This document shows positions 29,850-62,595 of a stretch of DNA of 64,000 nucleotides, in pieces. Position numbers and translations under genes: made by a program. Origin of the DNA: Schmidtea polychroa (Eukaryota). Each line of letters begins with the position of its first letter. The first letter of the stretch is position 1. Where the stretch lies: positions 4,154,001 to 4,218,000 of the forward strand of contig CM097888.1 in the NCBI GenBank assembly GCA_044892525.1. Direction: 5' to 3'. The notes under the pieces are model-generated. The model did no database searches, was not told the DNA's origin, and saw only the letters and a list, made by a program, of their open reading frames with translations.

Positions 29850-29850
29850 T

Positions 29851-30114
29851 ATAATGGTAAAGGTCAACTTGGAATGACCACGTTATTATCAATCATAATG
29901 ATAAAGGTCAACATGGTATTACCCTGCAATCATCAATCATAATGATAAAGGTCAACATGGTATTATCCTGCAATCATCAATCATAATGATAAAGGTCAGC
30001 ATAGGATTACCCTGCAATCATCAATCATAATGGTAAAGGTCAACATAGAATTACCCTGCCATCATCAATCATAATGATAAAGGTCAACATGGTATTACCC
30101 TGCGATCATCAATC
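29851..30114. repeat. 44-bp minisatellite, 6 copies (same family as 18638-19209)
   Basis: 6 x 44 bp, starting 1 nt after the hAT TIR. Confidence 0.95.
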
Positions 30115-30617
30115 ATAATGGTAAAGAATCATTACCTTATTAACCTTCAGGACCAACTAGGAAATAGTTCAAACATTAACAATCACTCAATTAATTAATT
30201 TATTGATATTGTCAATGCATTGATTAAATACTATTTACAAAATTTTTAATTAATTAATTAATTTTATTTGTTTAATTCTTGACACACACACACACACTTT
30301 GCTTAATCTTTGGTACCTTTCTCTCATTCAAACTCGCCATATTTTGTTTGTTTTAACTAATGTTTATTTGATAATTAATTAATAAATTAATAAATTAATG
30401 ATTAATAAGAAGAACCTAAATTAATCATTTTGATAAATAATCTACTTTATTTGAAATATATAAACAAGTTTCATAATATAAAAATAATAATTGTCACCTA
30501 CACGTGGTTGACTGATTGTAAGTATACTAATGAGATCACCAATGATTATATATAATCTAGTATATAAATTACTTATAAATATTATTATCTATTTCACGTA
30601 GAATATTTATCAAAATT

Positions 30618-30998
30618 ATGAANNNNNNNNNNNNNNNNNNNNNNNNNNNNNNNNNNNNNNNNNNNNNNNNNNNNNNNNNNNNNNNNNNNNNNNNNNNNNN
30701 NNNNNNNNNNNNNNNNNNNNNNNNNNNNNNNNNNNNNNNNNNNNNNNNNNNNNNNNNNNNNNNNNNNNNNNNNNNNNNNNNNNNNNNNNNNATTTTCTTG
30801 ATATTTTTTGTCGCAAGTTTCGAGCTGTTTCCCAAATCAGATGCCATGATTCTATCTGACGGAAAGTCGAACTGCGAATACGAGTGCAACCGGACGAAAG
30901 CAAATTGTCGACGAGATTGTTCGCTTTATGGTCCATGCAGTTATTGTTTTAATAGTTGTTCAAGCGCATTTCTCGAATGTGTAAGGAAATGTCAATGA
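30618..30998 (+). CDS. Small secreted Cys-rich peptide, copy 2 (N-terminus interrupted by an assembly gap)
   Basis: ATG AA[gap]IFLIFFVASFELFPKSDA followed by MILSDGKSNCEYECNRTKANCRRDCSLYGPCSYCFNSCSSAFLECVRKCQ*. Confidence 0.75.
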   Translation: MXXXXXXXXXXXXXXXXXXXXXXXXXXXXXXXXXXXXXXXXXXXXXXXXXXXXXXXXXIFLIFFVASFELFPKSDAMILSDGKSNCEYECNRTKANCRRDCSLYGPCSYCFNSCSSAFLECVRKCQ

Positions 30999-31443
30999 TA
31001 GAATGAAAATAAAAGTTTATATTTAATTCGTGTTTCCTCAGTTATTCTAGGAAGTGTCAATTTCATTTTGTGAAATAGCGGCAAAACTCATGATCGAAAC
31101 CCTCTATTTGACCACCAGTCACACCTTCTGTGTTTTCGCTAATTAGATTCGAGAAAACATGACATCGGGCAAACCAATGAAATTTGAGAGAGGAGGGGGG
31201 GTCAATTGGCTGAGGGCCAATACACACTGAAAATGTAATCTAGCAATATCATTAATAAACGCAAAATATAAAATAGATTCCTGAGGAACTCATAAATCCA
31301 TTTTCACTATTTTGTTCCTTGCAATAGTTATGTTCGTACGTGGGATATACGGATAACACACTCACTCGATGTGACTCCAAGGATATATGTTCAATAAAAC
31401 AAAATCACAACACGACTTATATAAAACTATTTATTTATATGTA

Positions 31444-32467
31444 CAGTAAACCCTCCAACTGCGCGGTTTTTCACTGCGCGGTTTCGCAATTGCGCGACCA
31501 AACCTTTAATACCAAAATTTCGATCTGCGCGCTAAAAATTTCGTAGCTGTGCGGTTTTTTTTGTTTTTGTCTATTTTAACAAGAAAAATCATGTCAATTT
31601 AATTTTTTATGGTGAATCCCGTAAAACTACGAATACATATGGTAGTGAAAATAGTGATTCATCGTATTTCGATGCACTGTATTTTTTATATAAAAATAAT
31701 AAAGGCAGTTTCATTTTTCTAGTGATGTGGTTAGGATTAGGATGTAAAATTACATAGTTTTAATTAATAGATATTTATACAAGTGTTTATTTAATTAAAA
31801 ATATATTAGTATTAAATTCAAAAAAATCTTATTCGTGTGCATTAGATATAACCGTTTACTACCGAAAAAATATCAAGTTTTTTAAAACTTGGTAGTCAAC
31901 TTGAACAGCAAGCTCTTAATATAGACCCTGATATGGAGCGTGCCTTAAAATTTCGGAGAAATCTGACAGCAGCTTTAGCACCATATGCTGAAATTTATAA
32001 AGAAAAACAAAAAGCTGGTAAGCAATCAGTGTTAACAAGCTTTTTTCAAAAAATTATACAATCACAGCCAATAGAATCAAGCTCATCAGCATGTAGCAGT
32101 GATTAATATAACGTTACTTATGTTAATTTTTATTTATGTTTAGTCGTTGAATTGAGACTGTTTTTTAGTTCTTGTATTGTTTTTTATAATTTTTATTTAT
32201 GTTAAATTTTTATTAATTTTTATAATAGTAATATTAATTATGTAAAAGCAATGAATTGAGACTGTTTTTATTAGTTTTTATGTTTATATAAATGTAAATA
32301 TGTATATTAGTCGTTGAATAAAGACTTTTTATTATATTTTTTAATATTTTTGTAATATCTGGAACCTAACCCCATAATTACATATATAATCGGGTTCACA
32401 GTGCGCGGTTTCGGTTTGCGCGTTGTTTTTGTGGAACGTATCTACCGCGCAGTTGGAGGGTTTACTG
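31444..32467 (+). mobile_element. Non-autonomous pogo/Tigger element, 1024 bp
   Basis: 24-bp perfect TIR CAGTAAACCCTCCAACTGCGCGGT and TA TSD. Residual transposase C-terminus DPDMERALKFRRNL..ALAPYAEIYKEKQKAGKQ..LTSFF. The empty site is present in copy 1 at ~20471. Confidence 0.96.
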
Positions 32468-33479
32468 TATAATATATATATATATACAAAATGTGGATTT
32501 AATTACAAAGTTTAAAATAACAATAAACGCGTTGCCCCAAAAAGTTGTTTCAAATAGGCAGCTGATAGATATCGGCTATACAAACTGTCCTAAGATATTT
32601 GCTGAGATATTTCTAAGACAGTGAATGCAGTATCCTAATTGGTCAACAGCACAATTCAACAAAGCCAGGAAATAGACGAGGGTTACCCGAAATTTACCGC
32701 GATCGATTACTACCCAGAAATTGGTACTAACGTTATCCTAAATTGCCTACCATCTGTTATTTTACCAAAAACAACCAAACCATCTTCTCTAGAAACCCGA
32801 TGATGTTTCCAAAGTAATATAAGCCTTGCTAGAACTGTTACAGCTGATCTATCAAATTATATAATGACCAATTTCTGTTTTTCGCAAATGGCTGTCATAA
32901 GGTACTTTAATTTGATCTTCCTTCTCTGTACTGATAAACTGTGCCATTTCATATCAAAATTTATAAATTAAAATAAATCAAAAATTATTATTTTTTAAAT
33001 AATTTCTTTTATTAATTACTAATTATATTATTAATTTTATTAATTACTAATTAGTTTTACCTTATCAAGCTTGTTCCTTACAAATCAGTCAAAATCTCAA
33101 AAATAGGAAAAAACCTTTTTATCATATATGTTAACATGTCAAGGACAGGTAAAAATTACTAGAAACTGTTCAAAATATAGAAGAGTAACAAAATGGATGT
33201 GATTAATATGCAAACCTAGGCTAAGCGAGGGGGGGGGCATAATCTGTGATTCTATGTAATAATTAAAAAAAAATTTGCACTGATAAATGGAATGACTAGT
33301 GAAAATTCCATAAGCAATATTGGCATTATATAAATTATTATTTATTAGTTTGTTTAAATAGTTGACATTTCATTTTAAAAAAATAATGATTAAAATAATA
33401 TTTTTAAAGAATTTTAAAAATATAAAATAATTATTTGTTGAAAATTATTTTTGAAAATACTTATTTAAAATTGTTATTT

Positions 33480-36012: not shown

Positions 36013-39000
36013 ATGAAGTTCATCAATCGTTATTCAACTTTGAAACCTTACCAAAGGACCTTTGAAAATGAAGAATCTTTGGTGGTCAAGATCAATGTCC
36101 GAGGAATAAAGTTTAAGGTGTTTTGGAATACGATAAAGAAGATGCCCGGGTTGAGTAAAACGATACTTGAAAAAGGTTTGTATAACAAAACGAAAAACGA
36201 ATATTTTTTTGATCGAGATCCTGAGGTCTTCAAATGTCTTTTGAATCTTTGTCGGTTGGGAGAGATGCACATTCCGAGTACTATTTGTGGGCCGCTGTTT
36301 AATAGGGAAATTAAAGAATGGGGAATTCGGATTGAAAACAAGGTCGAGTTCTGTTGTTTGATGAATTTGACCAATTCTATGATGAGAATAAAAAATCTGA
36401 GAAATTTTGAGAAATTCTTTTATAAAAAATCCGATAAGGCAACAAATTCGATAAAATGCGTTTCTCATTTCCGGCAAATGATTTGGAAGGTACTCGAACA
36501 TCCTACCTCAAGCGCACTTGCTCTGGTAAGCTATGACCATTTCTTGTATTATTTATAAGAGGATGATAATATTTGGTACCGTTCTTTTTTTATTCAAAGG
36601 GAGATTTAGCACTTTGTGATTATTCTTCTCCATCCTTGGACAAAGGATTTCAACTGAAAGACTCTTCTATCAAAATTATCTTCTGAAACTGACTTTACAG
36701 TAAAACTTTATTTACATTGGTATTGCCAGTTGTAACTGATAAAAATATAATAACATTTCCAGGGGAAGCCGTGGACTCTTATCTATCCTGATCTGAAAGG
36801 TTTATGGTTCAGAATAATTTGAGTAACCATTCCATAAAATAAACGACAATATTAAAAAATAATAATATATAAATAGCATGTGGTGAGCTTCAGAAAACTT
36901 CATGAAGGGTGTTTATAAATACATCTTGCCCTATTTATAAATAATAAGTATATTGATATAAAAAGTTCTTATAAAAAATTAAAAATTATGACGTAACCAT
37001 TGGTTAAAACGTAATCACCGAGTAAAACAAAATTCAGAATATTATACAATCATTGATTAAAACAAAATATTATGTAATCAACGACAAAAACATTTTTTGG
37101 GAGAGTTGAGAATTCCTATCGGATCTCGATATATCCATAGGACCTATCTACTCCAGAAGGGGTCGCAAAAATTTGGTTTTATCATTTTGAAAAAAAAACT
37201 TTTACTTTTTTGATTTTTTCAATAAATTTTTCTAGGTGAGGCCCAATTATTTTTTTTGAAAGAAGCACTGAAGGATTAACTACAACACTTTAACCAGATC
37301 TCTTTATCAAATCCAGTAAAAATCCCATAACACACTTACTAGATATAAATGTCCAATAAGGACCTAAGGAAAACTTCAGCACCTGCCATTCAGAGCAACT
37401 ACCATATATACCGCGAGCATGCATATAAAAGGCATATGAAGGGTATGTGCCTCTGATGGATATTTGACGGGATGCTGGGCTACGCTGTGTTAATTGTGCT
37501 GTCGTCCTTTGGTCCGATTTTGCTATTATTTATTGTTAGGAATTTAGAAGTATAAAGCCAGTAGTATAGAATTATGTATTTAGATAATCATAATTAAAAT
37601 ACAATTTCTAACTAGTATAATCCCCGTCAAGCATGACGGCAAAAGTTGAAATGATAATAAAGTTAATTTTTCGTACATTTTATTTTTAAAATTTTTCAAG
37701 TAACTTAAAGTTAAATTTTAATCTGTGGGACGAATAGACAAACACAGAAAATATTTTACTGGCAAATTATAAGTAGATAATCGGTGAAACTGACACACAT
37801 AAAAGCAAACAAAGAAATTAATGACGGTTATTATATTATTAATAGATATTCAATGATGTTTCTAGTGGTAAATGTTTCAAGCTTATTTGGCTCTCACTGG
37901 TGCATTGTAAGAAACCCGATTTTACCCGGAATCTATTACATAACTTTATTATGTGCCCTTAGAATGTGATTACTAATCTGTCGGGTAAATAAACTTTATT
38001 TGTCACCAAATTAGCGTAAAAACAACCAGTTTGTAATGAAATCAGATGGCGGTAAGTTGTATCAAATATTTGGATATTTCTCAATATTTTTAAAATGCGA
38101 TTGCTACCTTAATTGCGCTTAGTTAGTCATCCGAAAGCCAAAACACTTCTATAATTTCAAATAAGCTACGAACACAATTTAGGACCAGAAAGGCTATCTA
38201 TTGTGCCATTTGTAGAATTGTTTACTAGTCGTCAATATTATTTATAGCTAATTATTAAAACAAATTTTCAAAATAAAAATACTTATTTAGATATATTCGG
38301 CAATTCTCTATTTGGCGGTGATGGGATTCCTATTCGTATTCGTAGTGTCCACGGTCAATTCAGACTCATTTGTACTTCAAAAGCTGGAAATTAAACAAAA
38401 CGTAACGATTCAAACTCCCGAGAAGGCGTATTACCTCAAAATTCTTAATTACATAACCGTGTTAATTCTCACATTCGATTTGATTACTCGCACAATTTTC
38501 TGTGACAATTTACGATCCCACGTATGCAGCTGTTATACGATAATTGACGTACTTTCCTTGATACCGGTTTATTACAACAATATCTACCTTCTATTTTGGA
38601 AACCAGATTTGCCTGATACCACAACCACAGAAGCAGGTCGTGTAATCCGAGTGTTGGGAATCACCAGTGTTTTGAGGTTTTTCAGAATCCTAAGGCAATA
38701 TCGAGGGTTTCAAGTTCTCCTTTACACTATGAAAGTTAGTGCTTATGACTTGATATTAATGATGGTCTTTGTGATGGTTGCAATCTTGGTTTTCTCTTCA
38801 GTAATATTCTACGTAGAAGAAAACGCACAAGAGACTCACTTCACAAACATTCCAAAATCGTTCTGGTGGTGTATCGTGACGATAACGACAACAGGATACG
38901 GAGATATGGTTCCAAAAACACCGTTAGGATTTTTAGTAGCTGGAATTTGTTCTTTATGCGGCGTACTTTTAATAGCGTTTACAGTTCCTATTTTGGTAAA

Positions 39001-39289
39001 CAACTTTGTTCTCTTTTATACACATACAGCTATGAGTAGCGAGCAGAGGATAACCAATTATGCATATAACCAGTTGGAAAGCCACATTAAAAAAGCTCTT
39101 GGTAAAGTTAAACATATCAGAAAAAAATCTAAAAAGTCAAAATGTTCTAACCACAAACACTGCATATCAAGTTCGGAGAACGTTACAGTCTTTACAATCA
39201 TGGAAGAAAATGATGCTGTTAAAGAAAACCAAAACTACGGAACGAATGGGCAGGATTGTACACTGATTGATAGCTTAAAGTATTTTTAA
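36013..39289 (+). CDS. Voltage-gated K+ channel, Kv3/Shaw-like, 2 coding exons, ~503 aa
   Basis: Exons 36013-36525 and 38291-39289, GTAAG..TTTAG intron, phase 0. T1 domain (EYFFDRDPEVF, CGPLFNREIKEWG, EFCC), S4, pore FWWCIVTITTTGYGDMVP and S6. An upstream exon cannot be excluded. Confidence 0.92.
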
Positions 39290-40910: not shown

Positions 40911-42697
40911 TTATAAGTTTCCGTTTAGCAAAATACCAGTAAACAGCATAATACCGAAAGTTATCAGGAACAAAAAGTGTTCCTCGAGGTGGGTTTGAAT
41001 AACAAAATGTTCATGATTTTTTGACAGCCCTTTACCCGAACCAATTAGGTTAAGGGTCAAGATAGAGCACAGAGTTTAAAGCAAAAGCTGTTTATCGGGG
41101 TTAGAGGTCTTCATAACAAAATTTTAATTTCAGGGAGGTAGGATTGGTCCATGAATTACTCCAGATGTGGTTCAGCCAAAAACATAGCCGTTCTTTCTAA
41201 ATTGAAATCTAACTAATAATAATAATAATAATAATTGTTCGAATTTATTATTTTTTAACAAGAATTCTTACTATTTTGATTGGTTGATTATTTTTTAAAA
41301 TATCAAAATTTAAAATAATTATACCAAATATTTAGAAAATTCTTTTAAACTATAAAATATAATTTTTCATAATTTTTCCTTTAAAATTTTTTATTTTATT
41401 CAAACATTTTTGTCAATTTGTCAAATTGAAACTTGTAAATCTTTTGTATTGTTTTTATTATTATTAAATGTCTCTTGTTACTATTTGCTGTCATCTCGCA
41501 GCGGAGTGTGAACGGAAATTTTCTTATCAATTCAAACAAAAAGTATGGAAGAAATTTAATTGAAAAAGAAATTAAAATAAATTCGACTGTCGAGAATAAA
41601 CAAAAGTGTTTTGATGATTCTCGATGGATGCATTTCAGAATTGTCTCGGGTTGAAATGTGTGAGGAAAAGGCAACATTTCAACTCCTTTTGTTTACGTAT
41701 GACAATGAGGTGCAGCCCAATAAATTGAGTTGAATTATATATTTTAAATATATTATTTCTTATTGGTGACAAACAATTCTAAACCTTATAAAGGATTCTG
41801 TGGGACTTTGATTATTTCCATGTGAATGAGCTCACAAATTGTTGGGGTTTACAGTTACATCAGCTTCGTACTACATATGAGCGCTTTGATCTCCATTAAA
41901 ATAATCATGATTCTATGATACTTACTCATATAAATGTAGAAGGGTAACGATTATGAGGATATATATAATTATGGGCATGAAAGGAAATGGGATATCACAG
42001 GAATTGGTTCATTGATAAGGTTTTCTGATAATGAGGTTTGAATTATCACAAGATATGCAAACTTTCAATATTTTACTCGTCTACATATTTTCTAGAATTT
42101 AATTTATTTTATGCTCCTGATAACTCAATATATATATTGTCAACTAACTATTACAAACAAAATCTTTATTAACACTGATGCAGTTACACATTTACACTTT
42201 TTATTAGTTTACTCACACTTGATACAATCAGGTTTTGTCTGCACTTTTCAATTTGCCAACAAATCTCACGCAGGGGTAGATCTTCAAACGGGAGATGTCC
42301 CTTTCTGGTACGTTCGATTTTTAAATTGTTTATTTTCTACTAACTTTAATGTTTCCTTTTTCGCTCTCGTCAAACTTCTATTTTCTTTTCTTCGACCAAC
42401 TGTCAATTTTGATTTCTTGCCAGTTGCTTTTATATTCACTTGGTAATTAACTTTATTTTGGTAAATTAGTTTGGGTCTAACTTCCCCCGGGCTTCCTCTT
42501 GTAGGTCTAATTCAATTTAAGGAATTGCCCCTTCTTCTTTGACGCTCGCGTCACTTTTATTTTATTCGGCTAATTTTATTGCCTTACCAAAATTGGATTG
42601 CTAATTCAGGTTTTCTCAAATCACTCGGGTTTTCTATTGTCTCGGGTTCTCCATTAGTCAATTAATTTTTGTTTTTTGTATTTCATTCCTTTTTGGG

Positions 42698-44288
42698 GGT
42701 TACATGACAAAATTACACAAGACGAAATTACACAAGACGAAATTACACAAGACGAAATTACACGGGATGAAATTACACTGAGACGAAATTACACAGGATG
42801 AAATTACACTGAGACGAAATTACACGGGATGAAATTACACAAGACGAAATTACACTAAAAAATAGTAAGAAACAAAATTAAAAAAAATAGTTTAAATTTT
42901 AATAAAAAGTTTTAATATAAAAATTAGTAAAAAGTTTTAAAAAATTAGTAAAAGTTAAGTATTAAATTTAGCAATGAATATATTAACAATTTTAAATAAT
43001 AAAATAATAAAAATTTAAGTAAAAAAATAATTATAATATTTAATAATTAATAAATATATATATTCAAATTACTAGTTTTTCTCTTTAATAATAACATAAT
43101 TTTTTATTTTATGAATAGTGAGAGATAAAGTAAAAAAATAAAATCAAACATTTAATGTTAAGTAAAAAAATAAAATCAAACATTTAATGTTAAGTAATAT
43201 GAGCTATTCACCACAAAAACTCTAATCGTCTATTAGGGTTATAATTAAGTACGATTCTCGAAATTCGTTGTTTAAAATTAGTGTAACGAATACGTCCTGG
43301 ATTTATTTGACCAGTTAAATGCTGTAAATAATTTGTATGCTGCAATGATAACTCTTTGATCATATTATTAAGAAATTTCCAAATTGTTGGATGGGAACAT
43401 TGGAAAAGAGATTGTATCCCATAATGCCATCCTTCTATACAATTTGTAGTTCTTGCTACGCAGTTTGCTGCTGATTCCCTATGGTTCCAAGATACTATAG
43501 TAAATAATGGATACTATAGTAAATAGCCTTGTCAATGAGCTTTTCTTTGGTAGTCCAATTTTTAATCCATCCGCTGCAGTCATTATATTGTCTGCTATGA
43601 CTGATCGAGCAGTTGCACCTGGGTGAGACATTTTATCTTTCATCGCATTAGTCAGTTTGTGTGATTTTGCTTCAAACACTTTATTTTCATGAGAATGCTC
43701 CGAGGGCTCACGAATAATCTTGTCGTCTTTAGTGTGGAGCAAAGATCGACATTTTAAAGTTCTAAATTTTGAACATCGCCAGTGTCTAGTCCCTTTTATA
43801 GTTTGACGATGTTGAATAAACTCAAATCCTTTATAAATAATGATTTTTCCACCTTTGTTGCTGATACTATACTCAAAGTTATCCATGGTGCGCAATGAAG
43901 AAAATTTGATGAATAAAATATCAATATAAGCAATAGACTAATAGAATTTAGTTTTATAGATTTTGTATATATAATTGTAAAAATAATATTAAAAGAGAGA
44001 AATAAGCTTTTATAATGATATTAATTTATTTAATAAGTTTCTAAAAATTTAATACTTAACTTTTACTAATTTTTTTAAAACTTTTTATAAAAAATTTTCT
44101 ACTAATTTTTTTTCTACTTTTTTCGTCTTGTGTAATTTCGTCTTGTGTAATTTCATCCCGTGTCATTTCGTCTCAGTGTAATTTCATCCTGTGTAATTTC
44201 GTCTCAGTGTAATTTCATCCCGTGTAATTTCGTCTCAGTGTAATTTCATCCCGTGTAATTTCGTCTTGTGTAATTTCGTCCTGACACC
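42698..44288 (-). mobile_element. Mutator-like element (MULE), deletion derivative, 1591 bp
   Basis: 9-bp TSD CTTTTTGGG (42689-42697, 44289-44297). Long TIRs built of 15/16-bp tandem units (GACGAAATTACACAA). Contains an FLYWCH ORF and the MULE C-terminus RTTNCIEGWHYGIQSLFQCSHPTIWKFL (~43330-43460). Confidence 0.92.
43479..43895 (-). pseudogene. FLYWCH zinc-finger N-terminus of a MULE transposase (DDE core deleted)
   Basis: SNKGGKIIIYKGFEF..RHWRCSKFRTLKCRSLLHT..EHSH, then LPKKSSLTR. The catalytic domain is absent. Confidence 0.85.
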
Positions 44289-45811
44289 CTTTTTGGGACC
44301 CCCCCCGCCCCCATTGATTTTATTTTATTATAGTTGAACTCGTCTCATTATTCAGCATCCGCTCATACCAGTTTCTCACGGAAATTATTCACTTTCAAAT
44401 TTATTTTTGCTTTTTAATTAAAATTTTATACTTTAAATTTTATTTTGAATTTGGTGTTTTAATCGATTTTCACCTCATTTTTGTGCCTCTCCTGTTGAAT
44501 CCCAACAATTATCAAATTGCTGTGTAACCAGTAGAAACAGTAGAATATTTGTGGTTATATCCAGTCATTCTGGAGGTGAATAAACCTATTATGTCAACAC
44601 TCCAATTCATAATTTAGGAGGAGAAGTTTGGATTGGTATTTGTGTTTCCCTCTTAAACATGCTTTTGATGTTTTCCTAGAAGGGATTTATATTTCAGAAA
44701 ATTCGATGTTTTTAGACCAGCCCTCAAAGATCCAGTGAAAAGGCAGTTGGTCTGTTTGTCTGAAGAATAAAAGGTTGCGTAGCAGCGTAACCAGTAATCC
44801 TTGCCAAAATATTTATATAAATAAATAAATAAATAAATAAATATATATATATATATAATTTGAAGTTTGGATTTCTATTTTTTTATTTTTTGTTTGTAAT
44901 GTGCAATTGTTACCTTTCTCATCCTTACAGACGATGAAGTTATAAAAATTGACACAAAATGCATAAACTATGTAAAATCAATTTTCTCGGAAGTAAAAAG
45001 TTTGTGCAAATGTCAAATGAAAAGTTTCATCAACAAATCCAATTCTAATAAAGCATCACTTTTCGAAATTCTTTTGGGGTAATCAAAATATTTAATTTTA
45101 TTTCTTTACCAAAGACTTCAATTATTACAAATTGTTCTCGACTTACTGTTTCAAACTAAAGGCACTTCTCACTGGACAGGGTAACATGTGAATGGATGAT
45201 TGATTATAAAATAAATGATCTCGAAGTTAAACACAAAATGCTTAGACCAATGGAACAAAATTATCAGAGGATCCAATCAAATGTCTGTTATTAAATAATT
45301 AAATAGAGAAACTGCTATAAATCCTAGTGTAAATAATCAGATATTAAAATAAAAAACTCTGAAATTGTAAGAAATTATAAAGAGCGAAACGAAAGTAAAA
45401 ACTGAAGACTCACTCACCAGAATGCGTGGGAAACACNNNNNNNNNNNNNNNNNNNNNNNNNNNNNNNNNNNNNNNNNNNNNNNNNNNNNNNNNNNNNNNN
45501 NNNNNNNNNNNNNNNNNNNNNNNNNNNNNNNNNNNNNNNNNNNNNNNNNNNNNNNNNNNNNNNNNTGAACCGGGAGAACAATGATAATATATGAATAAAT
45601 AAACAAATTGATATAGCAAATCATCACATACAACAACAACAGCAACAAACGAGCCCATCATTCATATTTATTCAAATACATAAGCAATGAAATTGATCAC
45701 GCCCCTCCAATGGGAGAATTGATGCGATATACAATTACAATCAAGGAATTTACCACCACACATCAAATGTAAGGCGGAAACCGGCAAAAGAAAACAAGAG
45801 ATAAATTGCAA

Positions 45812-52130: not shown

Positions 52131-52348
52131 TTTGAGTATAAATTATAATATAGTCAAAATAATTCAGCAGGTAAGTTAAGATTATACAAATAATCATCCA
52201 TTCAAAATAACTAGGTTGAGTCAAACACAACTAAAAAAACAGAAATAAAGCATAATCACGAGGTGCTAATATTTGGCCCAGCGTTTTGATTGTCTATGCA
52301 GGGCGATTTTGTCAAGGACGTCCCGTTTTCATGGCATGTCTGTTTCTG

Positions 52349-52759
52349 TTAAGCGCTGGCCCCTGGTGGGCTTCTTTGGCGTTCCACGCTGCGGTGAATG
52401 GCGGCTGTTCGTTCTGGGTAGCACTGCAACCGGTGATACCCACTTATGTCCTCCAGCTCGCCGGCCAGAGTTTTGTTTTCGAGCCTTTGTAATCGATTTA
52501 AGGCCGTCTTGATGTCCTCGCACGCTTCTGTCAGGGCTAGGCAGGTGGTGATGAGGAAAGGTTCTACCTTCGGGGTCACAAGAACCACATTCTGGTAGGT
52601 CCAGTCGTGGATTCGATACTATATCCACCGGGACCTCAGTCGGGTGACTTCATCTCGGCCCAATCTGGTGGATTCTTCTGCCTCCTCTTGTGTTGTTCTG
52701 AGCCCCGATGCAGATGCCAAGGGGCCCGCTTGTCCGTCTCCTTGTCTGGTGTTAGGCAT
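52349..52759 (-). other. GC-rich ORF relic, probably the 5' ORF of an unrelated TE
   Basis: Markedly GC-richer than its flanks. MPNTRQ..RWI*YRIHDW..ERQRSPPGASA* has one in-frame stop. Family not recognised. Confidence 0.35.
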
Positions 52760-53100
52760 GGCTGTGATGATAAGAGAAATATTAAATCGAATCTTTGTTT
52801 ATCCATCTGGGTTCGCTTACCCCAGGACGTTTAAACGCACAGTTACATTTTAAATTCAAGCATGATACGCATTCATCCAACATGCAATGATTTTTTGTAT
52901 TTAAGGTGGATTTAAATTACTAATTAATTTCCGTATTTGATTTTTCGATTTAACTTAAGAGATTAGTTTGGGGATTACTAAATTAAGGATTAATAAATTT
53001 AGGTTTAACGAATTAAGAATGGAAAAATTAAAATTTCGTAAATTGAATTTGAGATCGCATATTCAAATGACTCTTGTTTAACTAATTCAAAAGTTTAACT

Positions 53101-53422: not shown

Positions 53423-53440
53423 TGGTGAGCCCAGCGTGAT
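53423..53440 (+). promoter_or_regulatory. Primer binding site, tRNA-Trp type
   Basis: TGGTGAGCCCAGCGTGAT. Its reverse complement ATCACGCTGGGCTCACCA fits the tRNA-Trp 3' end pattern (ATCACGTCGGGGTCACCA) with 3 differences. Confidence 0.7.
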
Positions 53441-53625: not shown

Positions 53626-55574
53626 ATGAGCAGTGAAGATTTACCAGTTTCAGTTATTAAAGAAAATAATGATTTTGCCAGTTGTCAAAGATTGCCACTA
53701 GAGCAATATGGAGGAGATCCAATTATATTTGTTGATTTTATGAGCGATTACTATATGTATGCAACGGCTTATGGATGGTCTCACGCAATCATGAGGTTTG
53801 GCAACAAATCGACAGGAAAACAATCGGCAATGATTGGGCCAAATTAAAAGATGCATTGGCTGCTAAACTTATTGGAGGAGATATAAAGAGATTAATGCGT
53901 CAGAAATTTTATAATAGAGTTCAAAATCCAAATGAAACAGTGAGCGAATTTGCTTATCATTTATCGACTCTTGTCAGCAAATTCTTTGAAGAAGATTCGA
54001 AACAACCAGGATTAGCCCAACAGATGCAGGAACTGATTCAAGATCAATTTTTGTCCGGAGTAAATAAAGAAATAAAAACGGCATTATGTTTTGTAGAGTA
54101 TGACAATTTCGATGAACTAGTTAAAAAAGCAATGAAAATCGAATTGAACCTAAAGAGCTCTAAAAATAAATCTGAGGTATTTGCAATAATTCCAGTACAA
54201 AGAGAGAGATCAGTAACCCCAACCCAAGGCAATTTGGAATCAGGAAATAGATTTCAACGATCAAAGAGTCCATCACCTAAATGGAGAAACGATAATAATA
54301 TGAACAGAGCAAGCCAAAATTCACCCGGCACTGAGAGAGCTAAAGTTATTCCACTTGATATTTGTAAGAAAATTAGCCATTATACAAATCAGTGTTGGTT
54401 TAAAAATAATTCTGAAAGAGTACCCAGGAGATTGAGTCCAGATTGGCAAAGAGATAATAGAGGAACGAATTTTCGGAGAGCAATTCCTAATGTGAAGTCA
54501 AATTTTAATGAAGTACAATGTTATCGCTGTGGTGAAAAAGGACATGTTTCTAGAAATTGTTTTTCAAGATCAAGATCACCATCAATGTCACCATCACCAC
54601 AAAGAGATAATGTGAATTTAAATGGACAAATTCAATGTCATTTATGCAGAAATTATGGGCATATTGCAAGATCTTGTCCCAGGAATTCCGATAAATTTCA
54701 AAGACCAATTTTGAAACGAACGATTAGATTTCAGGAAGAAAGCCACTCAAAGAATAATGTTGCTTATGTTCAGAAAGATAAATTTAGAGAAAAAATTGAG
54801 AACGATGTCAAACAATTGAATCAAAAATTGAATAAATTGATGGCGAAATTTGAATCAGATGAAGAAACAGATTCTCATATGATGACAAGACGAAAATTGA
54901 AGACAGATGAATCCAAACTTGATGATGTTACAAGAAACCGAGTTAAAACGGATATGCAAAGTGAAAAGAGTACAATACTTATTGCTAAGGTCAGAAAATT
55001 AGTAACAGAACCTGATGCGAATTCTCAGAAATTGACGGAAGTATTGATGAAGCTAACGGAAATACCGTTGAGTTTAACCAAAATTAAAACTGTTATTAAA
55101 CTGTGTACCGAATGTTATGCAGCAAGTGTGGAAAAGCGAGATGTATTTGAAAAGTATATGAAAGAATTTGGCCAAACTCCACGAAAAATCAAATGGTTAG
55201 ACCCGATATTTATTAAAACAAATACATTAGATGACACCAAATCCGAGTATCAAGTTGAAGCATACGGAAAAATACGCGAGTTGAAAAGAGAAATAATGCA
55301 CAAATGTGAAGTTTGGGCAGTAGAACTTAGATTTATGAATCGAGTGTTGGAAGACGACGAATTTTTGATAGATTGTGGATTGATCTCCGGCGTTGAAAAT
55401 GAGATACAAATAGTGAGCATGATTGCCAATGTAAAACCAGTCAAATATGATGTCAATAAAATTAAATTTGAATTAAATGAAGCATTGATCAATGGAGATA
55501 CAGGTGATATTATTGATAAATTAAATAATATTTTGAATTTAGAATATGAAGTGCAAGATAAATTAAAAATTTAG
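53626..55574 (+). pseudogene. Gag (capsid-like, RS/SP-rich, CCHC knuckles) extended by a helical region and ubiquitin-like domain 1
   Basis: EQYGGDP..F..Y..YATAYGWS, frameshift ~53790, W..LKDAL..F..RVQNPNETVSEFA..L..DQFLSGV. Knuckles CYRCGEKGHVSRNC and CHLCRNYGHIARSC. C-terminal IFIKT..LRFMNRVLEDDEFLIDCG. Confidence 0.85.
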
Positions 55575-55618: not shown

Positions 55619-55960
55619 ATGATAAAAAAGCTTATTCGTAAATTTGGACAAGAATTTAGAGAAAAAGGAGTTTATATTGAGCCATTCGTAATAATGTTAA
55701 AAATAAATGATCCAGAAGTGGAATGTACCAACGAGCATTGGTGTACGAAAGTGAGTAAAATACGACGGAGAGCAGCAGAAATTATGGGCAGTGATGGAAT
55801 AATTGTATTGACATACAAAGGTTTTGAGTTAGATGATGATGAGTACTTATTTGATTGTGGCTGTGTACCACGAAAATTTGATGAAAATGGATCTTTGGCG
55901 AATCAGGAAACGTTTATTAATGATTTATTAATGAAATTTAGTTGCGATGAAACAATTTGA
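55619..55960 (+). CDS. Ubiquitin-like domain 2 ORF of the retroelement
   Basis: KVSKIRRRAAEIMG..LTYKGFELDDDEYLFDCG resembles ubiquitin LIFAGKQLEDGRTLSDYN and UBL1. The frame is open back to 55562. Confidence 0.6.
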   Translation: MIKKLIRKFGQEFREKGVYIEPFVIMLKINDPEVECTNEHWCTKVSKIRRRAAEIMGSDGIIVLTYKGFELDDDEYLFDCGCVPRKFDENGSLANQETFINDLLMKFSCDETI

Positions 55961-56804
55961 ATCAAAGGAAGTAGAAAGCTTTAAAATGGAATTACCAAAC
56001 TGGGAAAATGAGATAATGAGTAATGATGATGAGATGCACGATGAACAAGAAATGAAAAGAGATGTAATATTAAATGAAACTGGAGAGATTATTGTTAAAA
56101 ATGAGATGAAGACTGAAGAAGATGAAATAGAAAATGAAGCGGAGCAGATTATTGTTGAGAATGAAATGAGAACTGAAGTTAAAAATGAGGCATATATGAC
56201 CAAGATGACGATTGATAATGATATTAAAGAAAAACAATGCAGAAATTTGTATGAAATAAGATGTCAAATAATACAGATATTTCAAGAGGAGAAAGATCAG
56301 AAAGACTCAAAGGAAACTGAGAAAATTGTACTTGCTCTAGTAAACGAATTATATGGTGAATCAACAGAGAGAATACAAGTTGAGAAATATGTGAGAAAAA
56401 TCGCAGAGAAAGTTAAAAAGAGATTTTGTGTAGTGTTAAAACAAGCAAAAGAAAGTATGGAATTTTGCGATGATAATGTGATAACTGAGATGATGACAAG
56501 GAAAATAGATAGAGATATGGTATTAACAATTATGAGTTATATTTTGTTAGAAATCGGAACCTATGATTGCTCAGATATGGAAAATCAAGAGGAAATAATT
56601 AAAACGGCGAGTAAAGTTTTACATAAACATGTTGGCGAATGGATAAAAGAGAATGGCGGTTGGGAAAAGCTGATTAAACAAAAAATAAAACCAGTTGTGG
56701 AATTGAGAGAAAATTATGAAGAGGTCTTGCAACGAAACACCATGAAATTTCCATTTTTAATGTTTATGATTATGATATTATTACAACTCAAACGACGTCT
56801 TTAA
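55947..56804 (+). CDS. Acidic N-terminus plus Bcl-2-like domain with C-terminal hydrophobic segment
   Basis: BH2 WIKENGGWEKL (56640-56672), BH3-like VRKIAEKVKKRF, divergent BH1 position EMMTRKIDRDMVLTIMSY, then FPFLMFMIMILL. Confidence 0.7.
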   Translation: MKQFESKEVESFKMELPNWENEIMSNDDEMHDEQEMKRDVILNETGEIIVKNEMKTEEDEIENEAEQIIVENEMRTEVKNEAYMTKMTIDNDIKEKQCRNLYEIRCQIIQIFQEEKDQKDSKETEKIVLALVNELYGESTERIQVEKYVRKIAEKVKKRFCVVLKQAKESMEFCDDNVITEMMTRKIDRDMVLTIMSYILLEIGTYDCSDMENQEEIIKTASKVLHKHVGEWIKENGGWEKLIKQKIKPVVELRENYEEVLQRNTMKFPFLMFMIMILLQLKRRL

Positions 56805-58839
56805 TCGCTTACGACTGTTCTCAAACAAAAATGGGAAAGGTATATTCGATGGTAGATATGACAGAATGTCCAGATGCACATCCACTGAGTTTAACAGTGG
56901 AAAAGGATGTAAAATATTATGTATATCAAGAGTCTGGATTTAGACATGCCACGGTGAGAGAGTGTATTGTGAAGAGAACAAGTTTTGTATTCTATTGTGG
57001 CAAATGGAGTCACACATCATTAATAAAAATGTATGCAATACCAAGGCCAGTTGATGTAAATCCAGAAAATTGCATGGCTGCATTCCAGAACGGAGAACTG
57101 AAAATAAGTCCCGAAATTAAATTGAAGGCGAATTGAATCATGCAATACGAGAAACGATTATTGAAAAAGTGGTGATAAAGGCCAATGGTGATTGTGAAGG
57201 CGAACCATACAAAATGAATGGGCAAATTATTGACAAAGTTGTTGTGATGGAGGAATATTTAACAGAATTGAGAGAATTTAAAGGAGCTTTTGACGATGAT
57301 ACAGGCAAATTACAAACTCATCCATTCTGTAATATGAAACAGACCAGTTGTCAAACAGGAAAATCGATTTTGGTATATGAAGTAAAGACAAATTTGTGTA
57401 ACTTGATACATTTGAAATCAATGAGTTTCAATGAAATGAGTGGCGAACAATTGAGAGATAGACCGGAAAGTTTGAATGTGGAAGCAAAGCCGGATATGAC
57501 AGTTAAAATTACGCGATTGAGAAAGAGAAAAACTCCAGTAGTTCTGATGTCAACTTTATTGGACGATGGGATGAGATTCATACGAAAACGAGTAGTGGAT
57601 AAGTGCGGCCAAACGGTGTATGAGACAAATTATAAAGGGATTTATGTGTCCAAGAAAAGAGTCGAGGAAGCTCAAATGAAAATACATAGTACAGATATTA
57701 AATTGACAAATTATTTCAATAACAAAATAGATTATCTATTCCATTACAGCCAAAGCATTGTGGAAAATATTTATCGAGAAATGATATTAAACGATTGTAA
57801 ATTAAACAAAGAAATATTACGAAATAGAATGGCGATGGCGGTCACAAATCCGAATTTAGTAGCACCTATGTTAATATCGGAAAACGGTGTATTTGCAAGG
57901 ATATTTGGTGAAGCGTTGTATAGCTATAAATGCAATAAGATTTCCGTACAAATTATAAAACACGAACAATGCACAAATGAATTACCAGTGAGTGTCAATG
58001 GTAAACTCAGATTTATGGAACCAATAACTCGGATATTGTTAGAGGAAGACGTAAAACCAAAGGTTTTAAAATGCAACAGATTACTCGCACCATTATATCG
58101 ATTAACACCAGATTCATGGATATCGTTACCAGATCACAAAGGAGTAAAAACTCCAGAAAAGCTCGAATTAACAAAGCTTGAGTATTTAATAAATTTCACA
58201 TCATTGGATAAATTAGCACAAACCGGATTGTATTCTCAAGAAGATGTTGAGGAAGCTAGAATGAATTTGTTATTTCCATCGAAAAAGGAACGAGTAATAA
58301 CTGAAATGATTGATACTATACTACCAGGAGGTGAAGGAAAAGTAAACTATGATTATCTATTAACACCAGATTATTATAAAAAGGCAACGTATAATACGAT
58401 GAAAAAGATATGGGGAAAATTTATGTTTTTAGGACAAGCGTGTGCGGGATTGATTGGAATTTATGTTATGATAGTGATGACAAAGGTAATAATATCTCAA
58501 ATATTAACTACACACCAATTATATGTTATATCTGGTTGGTCATGGAAATTGATTATTGGATGCATACCGTTCTTGGCCAGATTTCTGATTACCAAGCATC
58601 AATACAAAGAAATGGGGAAAGTAAAATCACGATTAACTAACAATAAAAGAAATATTGATTCAAGTTCGAGTAATGAAAGTGGAGATGGGGATAATGATAA
58701 TGATAAACCAAGAGTACCCCCTATGTATTATTATAAAAATAATAAAACAAAAATAAATGATATAAAGGAAAAATCTAAATCTATGAGTTTATTACATACA
58801 GTACCACAGGCAAGTGGAACAGACACTTTCAGTCGATAA
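56742..58839 (+). pseudogene. Chuvirus-like / herpes gB-like (class III) envelope glycoprotein with two 1-nt frameshifts
   Basis: Signal MKFPFLMFMIMIL, then (frameshift) TSLIAYDC, CGKWSH, GDCEG, YFNNKIDY, DCKLNKEIL, GEALYSYKC, CTNELPV, FMEPITRIL, GLYS.EDVE, C-terminal TM and GWS. Frameshifts at ~56782 and ~57132. Confidence 0.8.
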
Positions 58840-58881
58840 TGTATTCCAAAAACTTTTATTCCAACAGCAGCAATATATCCA

Positions 58882-59901
58882 ATGGAAAAACTAAAGGAAA
58901 TGAGGCCAATTGAGAATATTGAATTAACAAATGAGCAAATTATACCGACAAGTGCAGAAATTGAAAGGAGAAATATGCTGGGATTACCAGGAAATTATGC
59001 GCTAATGACAGTCGGAAACAGAGGCAGACAACCAAGAATATGGGTACAAGTAAATAAACATAGAGTTGAAGCATTTTTAGATTCAGGTTCGAGTAATACG
59101 ATATTATCAGACGAAGTGTTGAATTCAGCTGAGAAAGCACAAATGAAAAGTACAGAAGAAGTGGTACGATCAATGACGAAAAACAAACTAAATATTATTG
59201 GGCAGATTAGAGTCAAGTTCAATATTGGAAATCAGGAAATTGCTCATGATATTCTAATAATGCAAAATTGTCCAGTGGAATGCTTAGTGGGTATGGATGT
59301 TTTAGCACAGCTAGAAGGAGTTTGTCTTGATTTGAAAACGGGAAATTTGATTATGGGAGAAACGGGGAAAGCCATTCATGAAACAGGAGACGTGTTTCTA
59401 AACCAAACATTAAGAGTTCCACCTCAAAGTAAAGTTATTTGTTATGTGAATACAATGGGAGTTCCAGATGATGAATTTATATTTCAACCAAGTGAAACAT
59501 TAATCGAAAAGTATGATATCCCCATGTGCGACGAACTAGTAAAAGTCCAAGAGCAATTAATTCCCGTTTATATTACCAACAATAATGATAAAGAAATAGC
59601 ATTAGGACCAAAAACGAAATTGGGAAAGTTGACAAAAATCTTAAAAATGGACAATAAAAGATTACCGAAAAATATAAAAATATACAAAGAACCTCAAGTA
59701 AACAGTAAAGATTTGACCCAAGAACAAATACAAACATTTATGAAATTATTGAGAAAATATCAAGACGTCTTTGCAAATCATGAATATGATCTAGGAGTTA
59801 CTCATGTAATTGAGCACGAAATTCCATTAATGGATGAAACTCCAATTAAACTACGACCATACAGAATTCCTTATGCACATCAAGAGGAAAGTGATAGATA
59901 A
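58882..59901 (+). CDS. Retropepsin protease, linker and RT N-terminus (pol part 1)
   Basis: VEAFLDSGSSNTIL, CLVGMDVL, LLRKYQDVF..DLG..IEHEI..PIKLRPYRIP. Same frame as the G ORF and as 59911. Confidence 0.92.
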   Translation: MEKLKEMRPIENIELTNEQIIPTSAEIERRNMLGLPGNYALMTVGNRGRQPRIWVQVNKHRVEAFLDSGSSNTILSDEVLNSAEKAQMKSTEEVVRSMTKNKLNIIGQIRVKFNIGNQEIAHDILIMQNCPVECLVGMDVLAQLEGVCLDLKTGNLIMGETGKAIHETGDVFLNQTLRVPPQSKVICYVNTMGVPDDEFIFQPSETLIEKYDIPMCDELVKVQEQLIPVYITNNNDKEIALGPKTKLGKLTKILKMDNKRLPKNIKIYKEPQVNSKDLTQEQIQTFMKLLRKYQDVFANHEYDLGVTHVIEHEIPLMDETPIKLRPYRIPYAHQEESDR

Positions 59902-59910
59902 ATAAAGGAT

Positions 59911-61150
59911 ATGAAGGATTTCAATATCATCAGAGACAGTTTTTCACCATTTTCTTCATCCATTGTTGTTGTTAAGAAAAAAGACGGTGAAATAAGATTT
60001 TGTATCGATTATCGAAAACTGAACCAAGTTACAAGAAAGGATACATATCCAATCCCAGTTACTCAGGAAATGTTCGACAAAATGGGAGAAGCTCAATATT
60101 TTACTGTTATTGATTTAAATAAAGGGTATAATCAATTCAAATATCATGATGGAGCATTGGGTGGACATTTATCAGCAAGAAAAACAATGTCACGATTAAA
60201 ACTAAAGTATTTTTGGAATACAATGGACCAAGATGTAAAGCATTGGTGTAATACGTGCAAAATTTGTCTAACTCGAAAGAATACAGGAAAGAAAATAAAA
60301 GTCCCACTAAAACCAATGCCAATACCAGCAGCGCCAATGGAATTTTCAGCAATGGATATTATCGGGCCCTTACCCGAAACTACAAATGGAAATAAATATA
60401 TTATTGTATTTTGTGATTATTTAACAAAATGGCCAGAGGCGTACGCAATACCAAATCAAAAAGCGGAAACAGTTGCTCAAATATTTGTCGAAAAGATTAT
60501 ATTCAGATATGGTGCTCCAAAGAAATTGTTAACAGATCAAGGAACAAATTTTGAAAGTGATTTATTTAAATCTATTACCGAATTATTTGGTATTTATAAA
60601 TTAAATACATCACCATATCACCCGCAAACTGACGGGCTAGTAGAAAGATTTAATGGTACTTTAATCAATATGATTGGGACTTATTTATCAAACCATGTCT
60701 GTTTGCCTATCGAAATGCAGTTAACGAGAGTACGGGTGAAACACCTTTTTATTTAATGTATTTGAGACGAAACAATATGCCAATTGACCTGAAATTTCAA
60801 CCCCCAACGTCTCAATATATGGACGTTCCAAATTATAAAGTAATAATGCAAGAACGATTACAATCTGCATGGACTCGTGCGGGGTTAAAAATTAAGTATC
60901 GTCAGGAACAATATAAAGAAAACTATGACAAAAAGGCGCATGAGCACGGAATAAAAGTCGGAGATTCAGTATATTTAAATAGGCCAGAGCCAGTAAAGGG
61001 CCTATCAACAAAATTACAAAGACCATTCAAGGGTCCATACACAGTGTGTGATGTTACAGCAACTAATTTGAAGTTACGTCCAATGAATAACAAAAGAGCA
61101 GAAACAATTATAGTTCATGCCAATCGATGTAAGAAAGTATCCGAAATAGA
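59911..61150 (+). pseudogene. Truncated RT fused in-frame to integrase (most of RT and all of RNase H deleted)
   Basis: SPFSSSIVVVKKKDGEIRFCIDYRKLN..IDLNKGYNQ joined directly to HDGALGGH..C..C (HHCC). Core MDIIGPL / TDQGTNF / GLVERFNGTL. Frameshift ~60700, then GPY/F motif RPFKGPY. Confidence 0.93.
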
Positions 61151-61238
61151 GTATCAATTACGATCAAAACAAAAGAAACTTAATGATGAAAAAATTATTC
61201 AACAAAAATTTCATAAAAACCCTACGCCATTGGGATAT

Positions 61239-62408
61239 ATGAACAGAGTTTTATTTATAACTACAGTCTTAATAAATATCATAGCAAATGCAAGTGGAAT
61301 AACAATGAATCTACCATATGCAGTAGAAAGAGTACCCTTATTGGATAAAATTTATATATATTCAACATTTACTAGTATTGAGTGTGAAATATCAGAACAA
61401 ATAGAAGTTAGTAATTTATTGAACCCTTTCGAACCATCTGTTACGTTGAATTATGAGAAAAGCATATATGTAGCTCGTCGATTGACAGCAAATTACAAAT
61501 ATCCTTGGACCATTAAACGATATACGCATTAAACAAATACTACTCAAAATATTTATAACCTTATACAAATTAACATTTGGACAAATGAATGGAGAAATTT
61601 AGTTGAAATTGAACCAATGATAAATGAAATTCACGTATATTGGAAAGCGGAAGAGCAACAGAAACTCAGAATTGTTTTTCAAAACATTACGATTGAAACA
61701 TTAAATAAAAGAAAATCTTTTGTTAAATACAAAAATTTACAAGAAAATCTCACTTACAGTCTTTCAATACATTATTACGAGAAACTCATTCATGACAATG
61801 GGACGTATATGAATAATCAATGGATAGAAGTGCAGAGTCAATATGAAGCAGTACACTTGGTTAACGAAACTAATCGAGTTCAAATAAAAATTGAGAACAA
61901 TGAAATAATTGTGTTACCCCAACCAGGCCTCAGACAAAGGGTAAATATTTTTGTAAATAATAAAATTCAGGTGGTGTTAGACGAATACCAACAAAGAGCA
62001 AAGTTGAGTACCTTGAACTCAGTATCTAATCCGAAACCAAGAAATTTCATGATCAAAATTCAATATTGCAAGCGAAAAGCGAACTCAGATCAATGGCAAG
62101 TCACTTTCATTGAAAATAGACATATTCATCTTCCTCATACTCAAACCATTGGAGAAATAATAAGTGATCATAATCTAACATTAACCGTAAAACCCTCATG
62201 GTCAAAAAACGAAAGCTTTTCACTAAACTGTAAAGAAAAATCATCTCATAACAATTGTGTCGAATTGCTATTCATATGTATCATTGTGGCAATACCAAGC
62301 GGTATCTTACTCATCTACATTGTTCTAATCTTGAGAAGTAATGACAATGACAATTCTATCTGCGACTATCAATATTCTGAGCCGCAGCAGTTAGAGACAT
62401 GGGTGTAG
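61239..62408 (+). pseudogene. Type I membrane glycoprotein with FN3-like segment (one in-frame stop at 61530-61532)
   Basis: Signal-like MNRVLFITTVLINIIANASG, multiple N-x-S/T sites, HVYW..KNLQENLTYSLSIH (FN3-like), TM LLFICIIVAIPSGILLIYIVLIL, and tail ending ETWV*. Confidence 0.6.
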
Positions 62409-62595
62409 TAAGATATGATTTCATTGCATGCTATTGATATCGTAGAGTATTTCTTTCTTTCATACCTTTTATAATTACATAAAAATGACTAATAGTGATC
62501 TTGTATTGTGATTATTCGTGATCTAAAATTAAATTAACCAAGGAATTAACCAATCAAATTACTGTAATTTGATTGGTTAAACGATTGCACTACTG

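Follow-up and report, generated by a model that had tools for sequence, protein, structure and literature searches.

The closest described relatives of the element analyzed here are the giant Burro/GYPSM1 retrotransposons of planarians. In these elements env is inserted between gag and pol in the same frame, accessory ORFs can be subdomains of the polyprotein, and the cargo varies between families (PMC6431247). Paired LTRs and a total length over 25 kb are among the features of the Burro type. Two further elements, Smed_errantivirus_1 and _2, are listed in the supplement of PMC13524379; their Env is of the HSV/gB type and their 14.8-kb spans would fit an ORF1 of Burro size, the name Burro not being used in that source. 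Whether and how env-bearing invertebrate retroelements outside Drosophila move between cells is presented there as an open question. Extra ORFs placed after pol are known from the LTR elements of bdelloid rotifers, in which they encode small transmembrane (TM) proteins and DEDD exonucleases (PMC5408684). Furthermore, a retroviral surface protein that uses a PDZ ligand has been described: in HTLV-1, it is the PDZ motif of Env that mediates binding to hDlg where cells touch (PMC3185783).

We analyzed a stretch of 64,000 nucleotides of planarian DNA (Schmidtea polychroa), hereafter the window. It contains a decayed, retrovirus-like Ty3/gypsy element of the GAG-ENV-POL type, closest to the Burro elements, and a gene for a membrane protein with FN3-type repeats and a C-terminal PDZ ligand. 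This gene is a new cargo, found in a known element family and in a dead copy. It shares with Burro/GYPSM1 (PMC6431247) a Gag that bears CCHC knuckles, regions like ubiquitin and like Bcl-2 in that order, an Env of mononegavirus type between gag and pol, the order PR-RT-IN, host-derived cargo and accessory ORFs that may be polyprotein subdomains. In contrast, Gag to integrase takes up about 7.6 kb in the window element, compared with an ORF1 of 4,873 aa in Burro (PMC6431247), RT and RNase H are largely deleted and there are many breaks. No BIR, MATH/TRAF or ankyrin Pfam rows were obtained with the scanned ORFs. The region has about half the length of that in Burro, in a copy that is deleted and broken, and the cargo differs from one Burro family to another; we filed the element as Burro-related and not as Burro1. 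A gene with FN3 repeats, TM helix and PDZ ligand behind the integrase is not mentioned in the account of Burro/GYPSM1 in section 7 of PMC6431247.

The element also resembles Smed_errantivirus_1 and _2 in Env, where 61 and 52, respectively, of the 77 residues of an N-terminal stretch are identical (counted by eye), in keeping with a planarian host, and the gene order is the same; the four other Smed sequences compared are visibly more distant in Env (supplement of PMC13524379). Unlike the window element, which is identical to neither, these two elements are intact and multi-copy (45 and 215 copies), and only GAG, ENV and POL are annotated in them (PMC13524379). The features of the window element are collected in Table 1.

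Table 1. Features of the element and of the gene behind its integrase, with positions in the window.
Feature	Position	Strand	Basis or remark
Primer-binding-site-like sequence, just upstream of gag	53423..53440	+	sequence
Gag, frameshifted near its start, CCHC knuckles, then ubiquitin-like region	53626..55574	+	Pfam
Bcl-2-like region running into Env signal-like segment	55947..56804	+	Pfam/structure-database sequence match
Class III (mononegavirus/gB-type) fusion glycoprotein, frameshift-split near 57130	56720..58839	+	PF24664
Pol: protease, truncated RT joined straight to integrase, integrase C-terminus	58840..61238	+	Pfam
Interrupted type I membrane protein gene	61239..62408	+	389 codons + TAG, intronless, in frame with integrase C-terminus
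Signal-peptide-like segment, residues 1-18	61239..61292	+	hydropathy only
Repeat 1, putative FN3-like, about residues 30-117, contains TAA	61326..61589	+	L-x-Y-x-W-x-I-x-Y motif
Repeat 2, putative FN3-like, about residues 119-205, W135/L167/Y173	61593..61853	+	motif, repeat similarity, language-model neighbours
Repeat 3 (about residues 208-300), Ig/FN3-type beta-sandwich of seven strands	61860..62138	+	low-confidence AlphaFold model and structure match
Membrane-proximal stalk, two sequons	62139..62264	+	sequence
Transmembrane helix, 23 residues, L343-L365	62265..62333	+	KD19 2.95
Cytoplasmic tail, 24 residues, ends ETWV (62394-62405)	62334..62405	+	sequence
Downstream ORF, 168 aa	62596..63102	+	no significant Pfam match
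ISG20-like DEDD 3'-5' exonuclease ORF, intronless	63103..63690	+	RNase_T E 2.9e-6; ISG20 1wlj E 7e-7

The primer-binding-site-like sequence in the 5' part of the element resembles a tRNA-Trp site. Gag was recognized by Pfam (Retrotrans_gag, E 5e-5; zf-CCHC, E 5e-9), and the region behind it matched the Pfam ubiquitin family at E 0.0012, below the cut-off. A 113-aa ORF (55619-55960, plus strand) lies between the ubiquitin-like and the Bcl-2-like regions; by eye it resembles a second ubiquitin-like unit, and it gave no Pfam row. The Bcl-2-like region matched Pfam Bcl-2 (E 2.5e-4, below the cut-off) and Bcl-2 A1 (E 0.006). Judging from its sequence, the relative P0002 confirms a polyprotein layout in which this region leads into Env: its residues 1-80 comprise a Bcl-2-like tail (W-I-x-x-x-G-G-W) that continues in frame, via a basic patch and a signal segment, into Env. 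The Env itself sits between zf-CCHC and protease, gave PF24664 matches at E 2.4e-14 and 2.1e-70 and is of the Monjiviricetes/bornavirus G type. The presence of this class III fusogen in the same element and on the same strand as the FN3-type gene agrees with the original prediction. A database protein, P0005, contains a 71-aa piece that is 73% identical to this Env and is joined to a helicase; gene calling has probably merged it with sequence of an element closely related to the one in the window.

Within Pol, the RT ends after its first motifs at about 60140-60150, where the frame continues into the zinc finger of the integrase; an internal deletion has removed the greater part of RT and RNase H. 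The spacer between PR and RT (59365-59661) is of a size suitable for a dUTPase and gave no Pfam row (the dUTPase of Burro was found by HHpred). Downstream of the FN3-type gene, a palindrome of 35 nt (62546-62580) that is almost perfect and has a CCAAT box in each arm closely precedes the ORF at 62596; it is a possible internal promoter for the downstream ORFs. That ORF is in the same frame as the exonuclease, with one stop between them, and the two may form one gene. Compared with the rotifer elements, in which the exonucleases of ORF3 are DEDDy and ORF3 mostly replaces env (PMC5408684), the exonuclease of the window element is closest to ISG20 and comes in addition to env. No repeat of the 5' region that could represent a second LTR was found between 52 kb and 64 kb, the window ending at 64000.

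Other features of the window include a single-ORF kinase of 419 aa (16674-17933, minus strand; closest to Wee1/Wee2, E 8e-20), which is a host gene or a retrocopy, and a gene for a Kv channel of the Shaker superfamily (36013-39289, plus strand), made of two ORFs (BTB_2 and Ion_trans), which shows that the host is an animal. Dispersed, near-identical repeat copies (93-99%) with a 44-nt tandem array occupy 18550-21030 and 29763-33052, both interrupted by an N gap. A 1.6-kb foldback or MITE-like element with long inverted ends of 15-16-nt tandem units is present at 42690-44290, and a GC-richer stretch with several open frames (52256-52850, plus strand) lies upstream of the putative 5' LTR end.

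When its internal stop is read as X, the sequence from 61239 to 62408 encodes a type I membrane protein of 389 residues that terminates with the TAG at 62406-62408. This gene had been taken for one uninterrupted frame. Yet, translation places an in-frame TAA at codon 98 (61530-61532), which had been overlooked, and the copy is a pseudogene; ORF finding accordingly yields two pieces, 60756-61532 and 61617-62408. We considered the possibility that these belong to two separate genes. This was ruled out by the relative P0007, residues 42-337 of which align collinearly and in one frame to 61335-62210 across the TAA (tblastn against the window, E 2.5e-13). The part after the stop aligned with P0007 better than 1000 of 1000 shuffles and the part before it better than 989 of 1000. 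Since P0007 is uninterrupted and collinear across it, the TAA is a lesion within a single gene, or possibly an assembly error. Between 53626 and 61238 the surrounding element has been damaged nine or more further times by stops, frameshifts or deletions. Because of these lesions the plain reading is that the copy in the window would be dead, and programmed read-through of the TAA was rejected on the same ground. There is no second copy of the gene in the 64-kb window.

No stop precedes the ATG at 61239, a point that had been overlooked: the frame runs on from the integrase C-terminus with zero stops between, and an in-frame basic, charged linker coming from the integrase lies upstream of the signal-like segment. 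A pyrimidine-tract scan of 60900-61340 disclosed no splice acceptor ahead of the gene. The gene directly abuts the integrase, and no LTR-like repeat separates it from pol. The open in-frame path from the integrase would arise with a chance of 0.02-0.045 under a neutral spacer. The A-rich strand bias of the gene (A 0.39-0.41) is that of gag-pol (0.39-0.45), as compared with 0.32-0.34 in the neighbouring kinase and channel genes. Because of the absence of an intervening LTR, the A-rich bias, the lack of introns and the open path from integrase, the best reading is that the gene is an accessory gene of the Burro-type element, a predicted cargo carried behind the integrase. That P0007 starts with a Met and a signal of its own speaks for a separate ORF and against a fusion to the polyprotein.

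The architecture of the protein was largely as originally predicted. The hydrophobic N-terminus peaks at KD19 1.82 over residues 4-22 and offers, with A-N-A at residues 16-18, a plausible signal cleavage site; the TM helix has exactly the 23 residues proposed, the W..L...Y pattern is present in the second repeat, and E-T-W-V stands directly before the terminal TAG. From the single signal-like segment and the single TM helix, based on hydropathy, the C-terminus would lie in the cytosol. The short tail contains no catalytic or signalling domain. One proposed feature, a richness in sequons, did not hold. The protein has eight sequons, one of them at the signal cleavage site, compared with 5.3 ± 2.0 expected from 5000 shuffles (P = 0.14); as this is the chance level in an Asn-rich sequence, we gave the sequons no weight and rejected their enrichment in the window protein. 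Among the relatives, the partial P0006 was enriched (9 versus 3.9 expected, P = 0.008), whereas P0007 was not (6 versus 5.0).

Relatives of the protein are few. When the X read-through was compared exhaustively with 1.84 billion representative proteins, only two matches emerged at E ≤ 0.001. One, P0006, is N-terminally partial (257 aa, 32% identity, E 1.3e-8); the other, P0007, has 410 aa and 23% identity (E 2e-7) and covers residues 28-362 of the query. The ORF of P0007, which was called on a contig of 2778 nt, is full-length and uninterrupted, as expected of an intronless element gene, and its product has an N-terminal hydrophobic segment after its own Met, one TM helix and a short tail. The layout is common to the window protein and to both of these distant relatives, within the limits of the truncated P0006. 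Word-indexed searches, which covered only near-length proteins, retained 0 of 1225 candidates with the read-through query and 1 of 2833, P0007 itself, with the family alignment. No match of P0007 was found in phage genomes, no Pfam family was assigned to the window protein, its halves, its single repeats, P0006 or P0007, and comparison with the PDB by sequence or profile returned only unrelated rows at E > 0.1. The idea of a captured receptor or adhesion mimic remains plausible from the architecture, but neither the word-indexed searches nor that of the 1.84 billion representatives (P0006 and P0007 being the two matches) led to a recognizable host donor gene.

As to the fold, several approaches were combined. 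The Leu of the E-F loop and the tyrosine corner of strand F give FN3 domains a characteristic L...Y pattern, and a Trp in strand B is another element of the FN3 motif. A corresponding pattern (L...Y/F-x-hydrophobic-x-hydrophobic-x-Y) occurs three times in the window protein, three times in P0007 and twice in the partial P0006, and L167 and Y173 are invariant in all three sequences. The window protein has the B-strand Trp in its second repeat (W135) and P0007 in its first (W58); it is missing at the other aligned positions. With hhalign, all three pairs of internal repeats scored above 60 of 60 column-shuffled controls, at Probab values of only 10-38; those of repeat 1 with repeats 2 and 3 were only 10-14, and repeat 1 is identical to P0007 at 15 of 88 positions.

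AlphaFold was uninformative with the single sequence (pLDDT 34). With a three-row alignment of residues 113-300 the mean pLDDT was 47.5; repeat 2 was poorly modelled (24-46), and repeat 3 formed an all-beta domain of seven strands (55-71 per block). Foldseek against the PDB gave nothing at E ≤ 0.001, and the top rows were mostly FN3 tandems (GH84C FN3 at 1.6e-3, CD45 d3-d4, SleM, HCF-1, EpoR, fibronectin, IFNAR1). Repeat 3 aligned with fibronectin FN3-6 in VIA-align over 78 of 86 residues (rmsd 2.5) with a Z of 7.9, values of Z below 8 being possibly due to a common arrangement. When VIA was run without bias over 48,161 chains, Z remained below 8 throughout, and FN3 domains tied with teneurin and bacterial Ig-like domains. 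A viral fold library gave the ASFV CD2 homolog as its best match (E 5e-3), and no specific viral relative. In the language-model Atlas, repeats 2-3 of the window protein adjoin Pfam fn3 clusters (0.93) and P0007 adjoins FNDC5/FNDC4 (0.90), with FNDC9 and cytokine and interferon receptor chains also as neighbours; for both queries the 10 best family rows all belong to one clan. The Atlas recognition values (1688 and 1875 against a mark of 2300) and shared features (162 and 168 against 170) were all below their marks. The Pfam fn3 cut-off (PF00041) was not reached by the whole protein, its halves, its single repeats, P0006 or P0007.

These findings suggest that the ectodomain is very probably an Ig-like sandwich and, from the motifs, the low-confidence model of repeat 3 and the language-model neighbours, quite likely one of the FN3 type; it probably has three such domains. 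It is probably FN3-like in structure, yet outside the Pfam fn3 family. The original proposal of an FN3-like ectodomain is thus retained with moderate confidence, on three weak but concordant lines and no family HMM match; the structural check that it had called for disclosed, at low-to-moderate confidence, an FN3-type sandwich for repeat 3, but no Foldseek match at E ≤ 0.001. Class I cytokine receptors carry a WSxWS motif and conserved N-terminal cysteines. As WSxWS is found in none of the three sequences and no Cys is invariant, membership of that class was ruled out; RGD is also absent. FNDC4, FNDC5, FNDC9, cytokine receptor chains and the CD45 ectodomain share with the window protein a signal, FN3-type sandwiches and one TM helix, with a short tail. 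In contrast to animal FN3 proteins, to which no sequence similarity was detected, the window family has no more than one repeat per protein with the B-strand Trp, and no catalytic domain.

The predicted PDZ ligand is the firmest functional clue. The window protein ends with ETWV and its relatives with STLV and VTQV, the residues L(-4), T(-2) and V(0) being invariant in the three sequences. The tail positions that remain are shared with the relatives in 3 of 19 and 0 of 19 cases and those of the TM helix in 3 of 21 and 4 of 23. T-x-V is expected from composition with a chance of 0.003-0.004 per protein, and it terminates 2 of the 323 stop-to-stop frames of the window, one of which is the gene under study. 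Because relatives at 23% and 32% identity also end with T-x-V, we consider the motif of a class I PDZ ligand (x-S/T-x-hydrophobic at a free C-terminus) to be conserved, in line with what had been proposed for the window protein. ETWV is also the core of the optimal Erbin ligand WETWV (PMC2553845) and of the Scribble super-peptide RSWFETWV (PMC10952772); a preference for these scaffolds would come from one sequence, as W(-1) is not found in the relatives.

Taken together, the reading that we favor, with a probability of about 0.4, is that the gene encodes an accessory protein of captured origin, similar to an adhesion receptor, which links the producing cell's membrane with polarity scaffolds of the PDZ type and thus aids contact-dependent spread. 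Its source would be an animal FN3 receptor or an adhesion molecule; the capture would be old and the divergence since then large. In working elements it would be a single-pass surface protein, with a signal peptide, three FN3-type domains, a stalk, a TM helix and a short tail in which the class I PDZ ligand would be the sole conserved feature. The protein could be made as the last domain of the polyprotein, freed by an internal signal peptide as P0002 illustrates for Env, or from a message of its own. Displayed on the plasma membrane of the cell that makes it, it might bind polarity scaffolds of the Scribble, Erbin or Dlg type through its tail, while its ectodomain would make or stabilize cell contacts. 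Assembly and Env-driven fusion would thereby be focused at a chosen face of the membrane, leading to cell-to-cell spread. The ligand would be placed on the last protein because an Env in the middle of a polyprotein has no encoded free C-terminus, which a PDZ ligand needs. The likeness to HTLV-1 is that a surface protein of a retroelement offers a free C-terminus to a PDZ polarity scaffold, on the basis, in our case, of a motif read from the sequence; unlike in HTLV-1, where the fusogen itself bears the motif, this would be a separate, non-fusogenic, FN3-type protein, which makes the comparison an analogy and not a homology (PMC3185783). A division of labor between two surface proteins in Burro-type elements, with the class III fusogen inside the polyprotein and, at the end of it, a captured FN3 adhesion protein that an internal signal peptide frees and whose PDZ tail anchors the site of assembly to polarity scaffolds, seems unlikely.

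We considered the possibility that the protein is a decoy without a role in spread, that is, a signalling-dead mimic of an FN3 receptor that acts as a ligand sink outside the cell or as a competitor for PDZ scaffolds inside it, so that the host cell is kept alive or tolerant. This is conceivable, though on the whole somewhat improbable. The short tail devoid of signalling domains fits with it, as do the cytokine and interferon receptor chains among the fold and Atlas neighbours and the rest of the cargo of the element (Bcl-2-like, ubiquitin-like, exonuclease). Apoptosis and ubiquitin regulators dominate the cargo of Burro (PMC6431247), a protective effect of Burro1 on stem cells is reported (PMC13465017), and viral PDZ ligands often work by competition. 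Yet, none of the three sequences has the WSxWS motif or conserved cysteines, the fold matches single out no receptor class, and a pure ligand sink would need no membrane anchor. Attachment proteins that assist a separate fusogen, such as H/G of paramyxoviruses and gD or gH-gL of herpesviruses, provide another model, in which the protein would be packaged in the virion beside the class III fusogen and bind a receptor on the target cell in a two-component entry. Its location on the same element and strand as Env, possibly in the same polyprotein, and an elongated three-domain ectodomain on a stalk would suit this role. However, the Env belongs to the Monjiviricetes/bornavirus G type, and Envs of mononegavirus type generally bind and fuse alone, with no partner required, which makes the role of a fusogen partner less likely. 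In addition, the conserved feature is a cytoplasmic ligand for host scaffolds, which would act in the producing cell. The main text of PMC13524379, a survey of 1512 env-bearing elements that did not seek such a gene, has 0 mentions of fibronectin, PDZ or exonuclease. We regard this role as very doubtful.

The gene may also be a mere passenger, that is, a retrocopied or adjacent host gene for an FN3 membrane protein, or an old capture of no use to the element, with P0006 and P0007 as host genes. Proteins that combine FN3 repeats, a TM helix and a PDZ tail are ordinary in animals, as illustrated by the Atlas neighbours FNDC4/5/9; the copy in the window is broken, and the 3' LTR lies outside the window. 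Against this stand the intronless gene that abuts the integrase in frame with no LTR between and has the strand bias of the element, the further cargo-like ORFs downstream on the same strand, the lack of a recognizable cellular orthologue among the 1.84 billion representatives and the full-length, uninterrupted P0007. These observations make the passenger explanation decidedly unlikely, and we retain that of an accessory protein for contact-dependent spread as the best reading.

PMC5408684 has 0 mentions of fibronectin, and no such gene is described in the titles and abstract openings of published work on Burro and gypsy elements; the primary figures and supplements on Burro, or Repbase, may already show the ORF. 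The weight of the observation is lowered by the fact that the copy is dead and the element family known. Still, Burro elements occur in large numbers in an animal that is a tractable model, are naturally de-repressed there under smedwi-2 RNAi (PMC8532177) and have been recognized as carriers of host-derived survival genes, and the present gene extends the list of LTR-element cargo from cytosolic regulators to an architecture like that of adhesion receptors. If a surface protein that bears a PDZ ligand is conserved in them, it would offer a way to learn where in the cell they assemble and whether they spread by contact. Should the unlikely division of labor between two surface proteins be true, this would be an LTR retrotransposon with its own synapse-like, contact-forming spreading protein, a device known from complex vertebrate viruses and not from gypsy elements.
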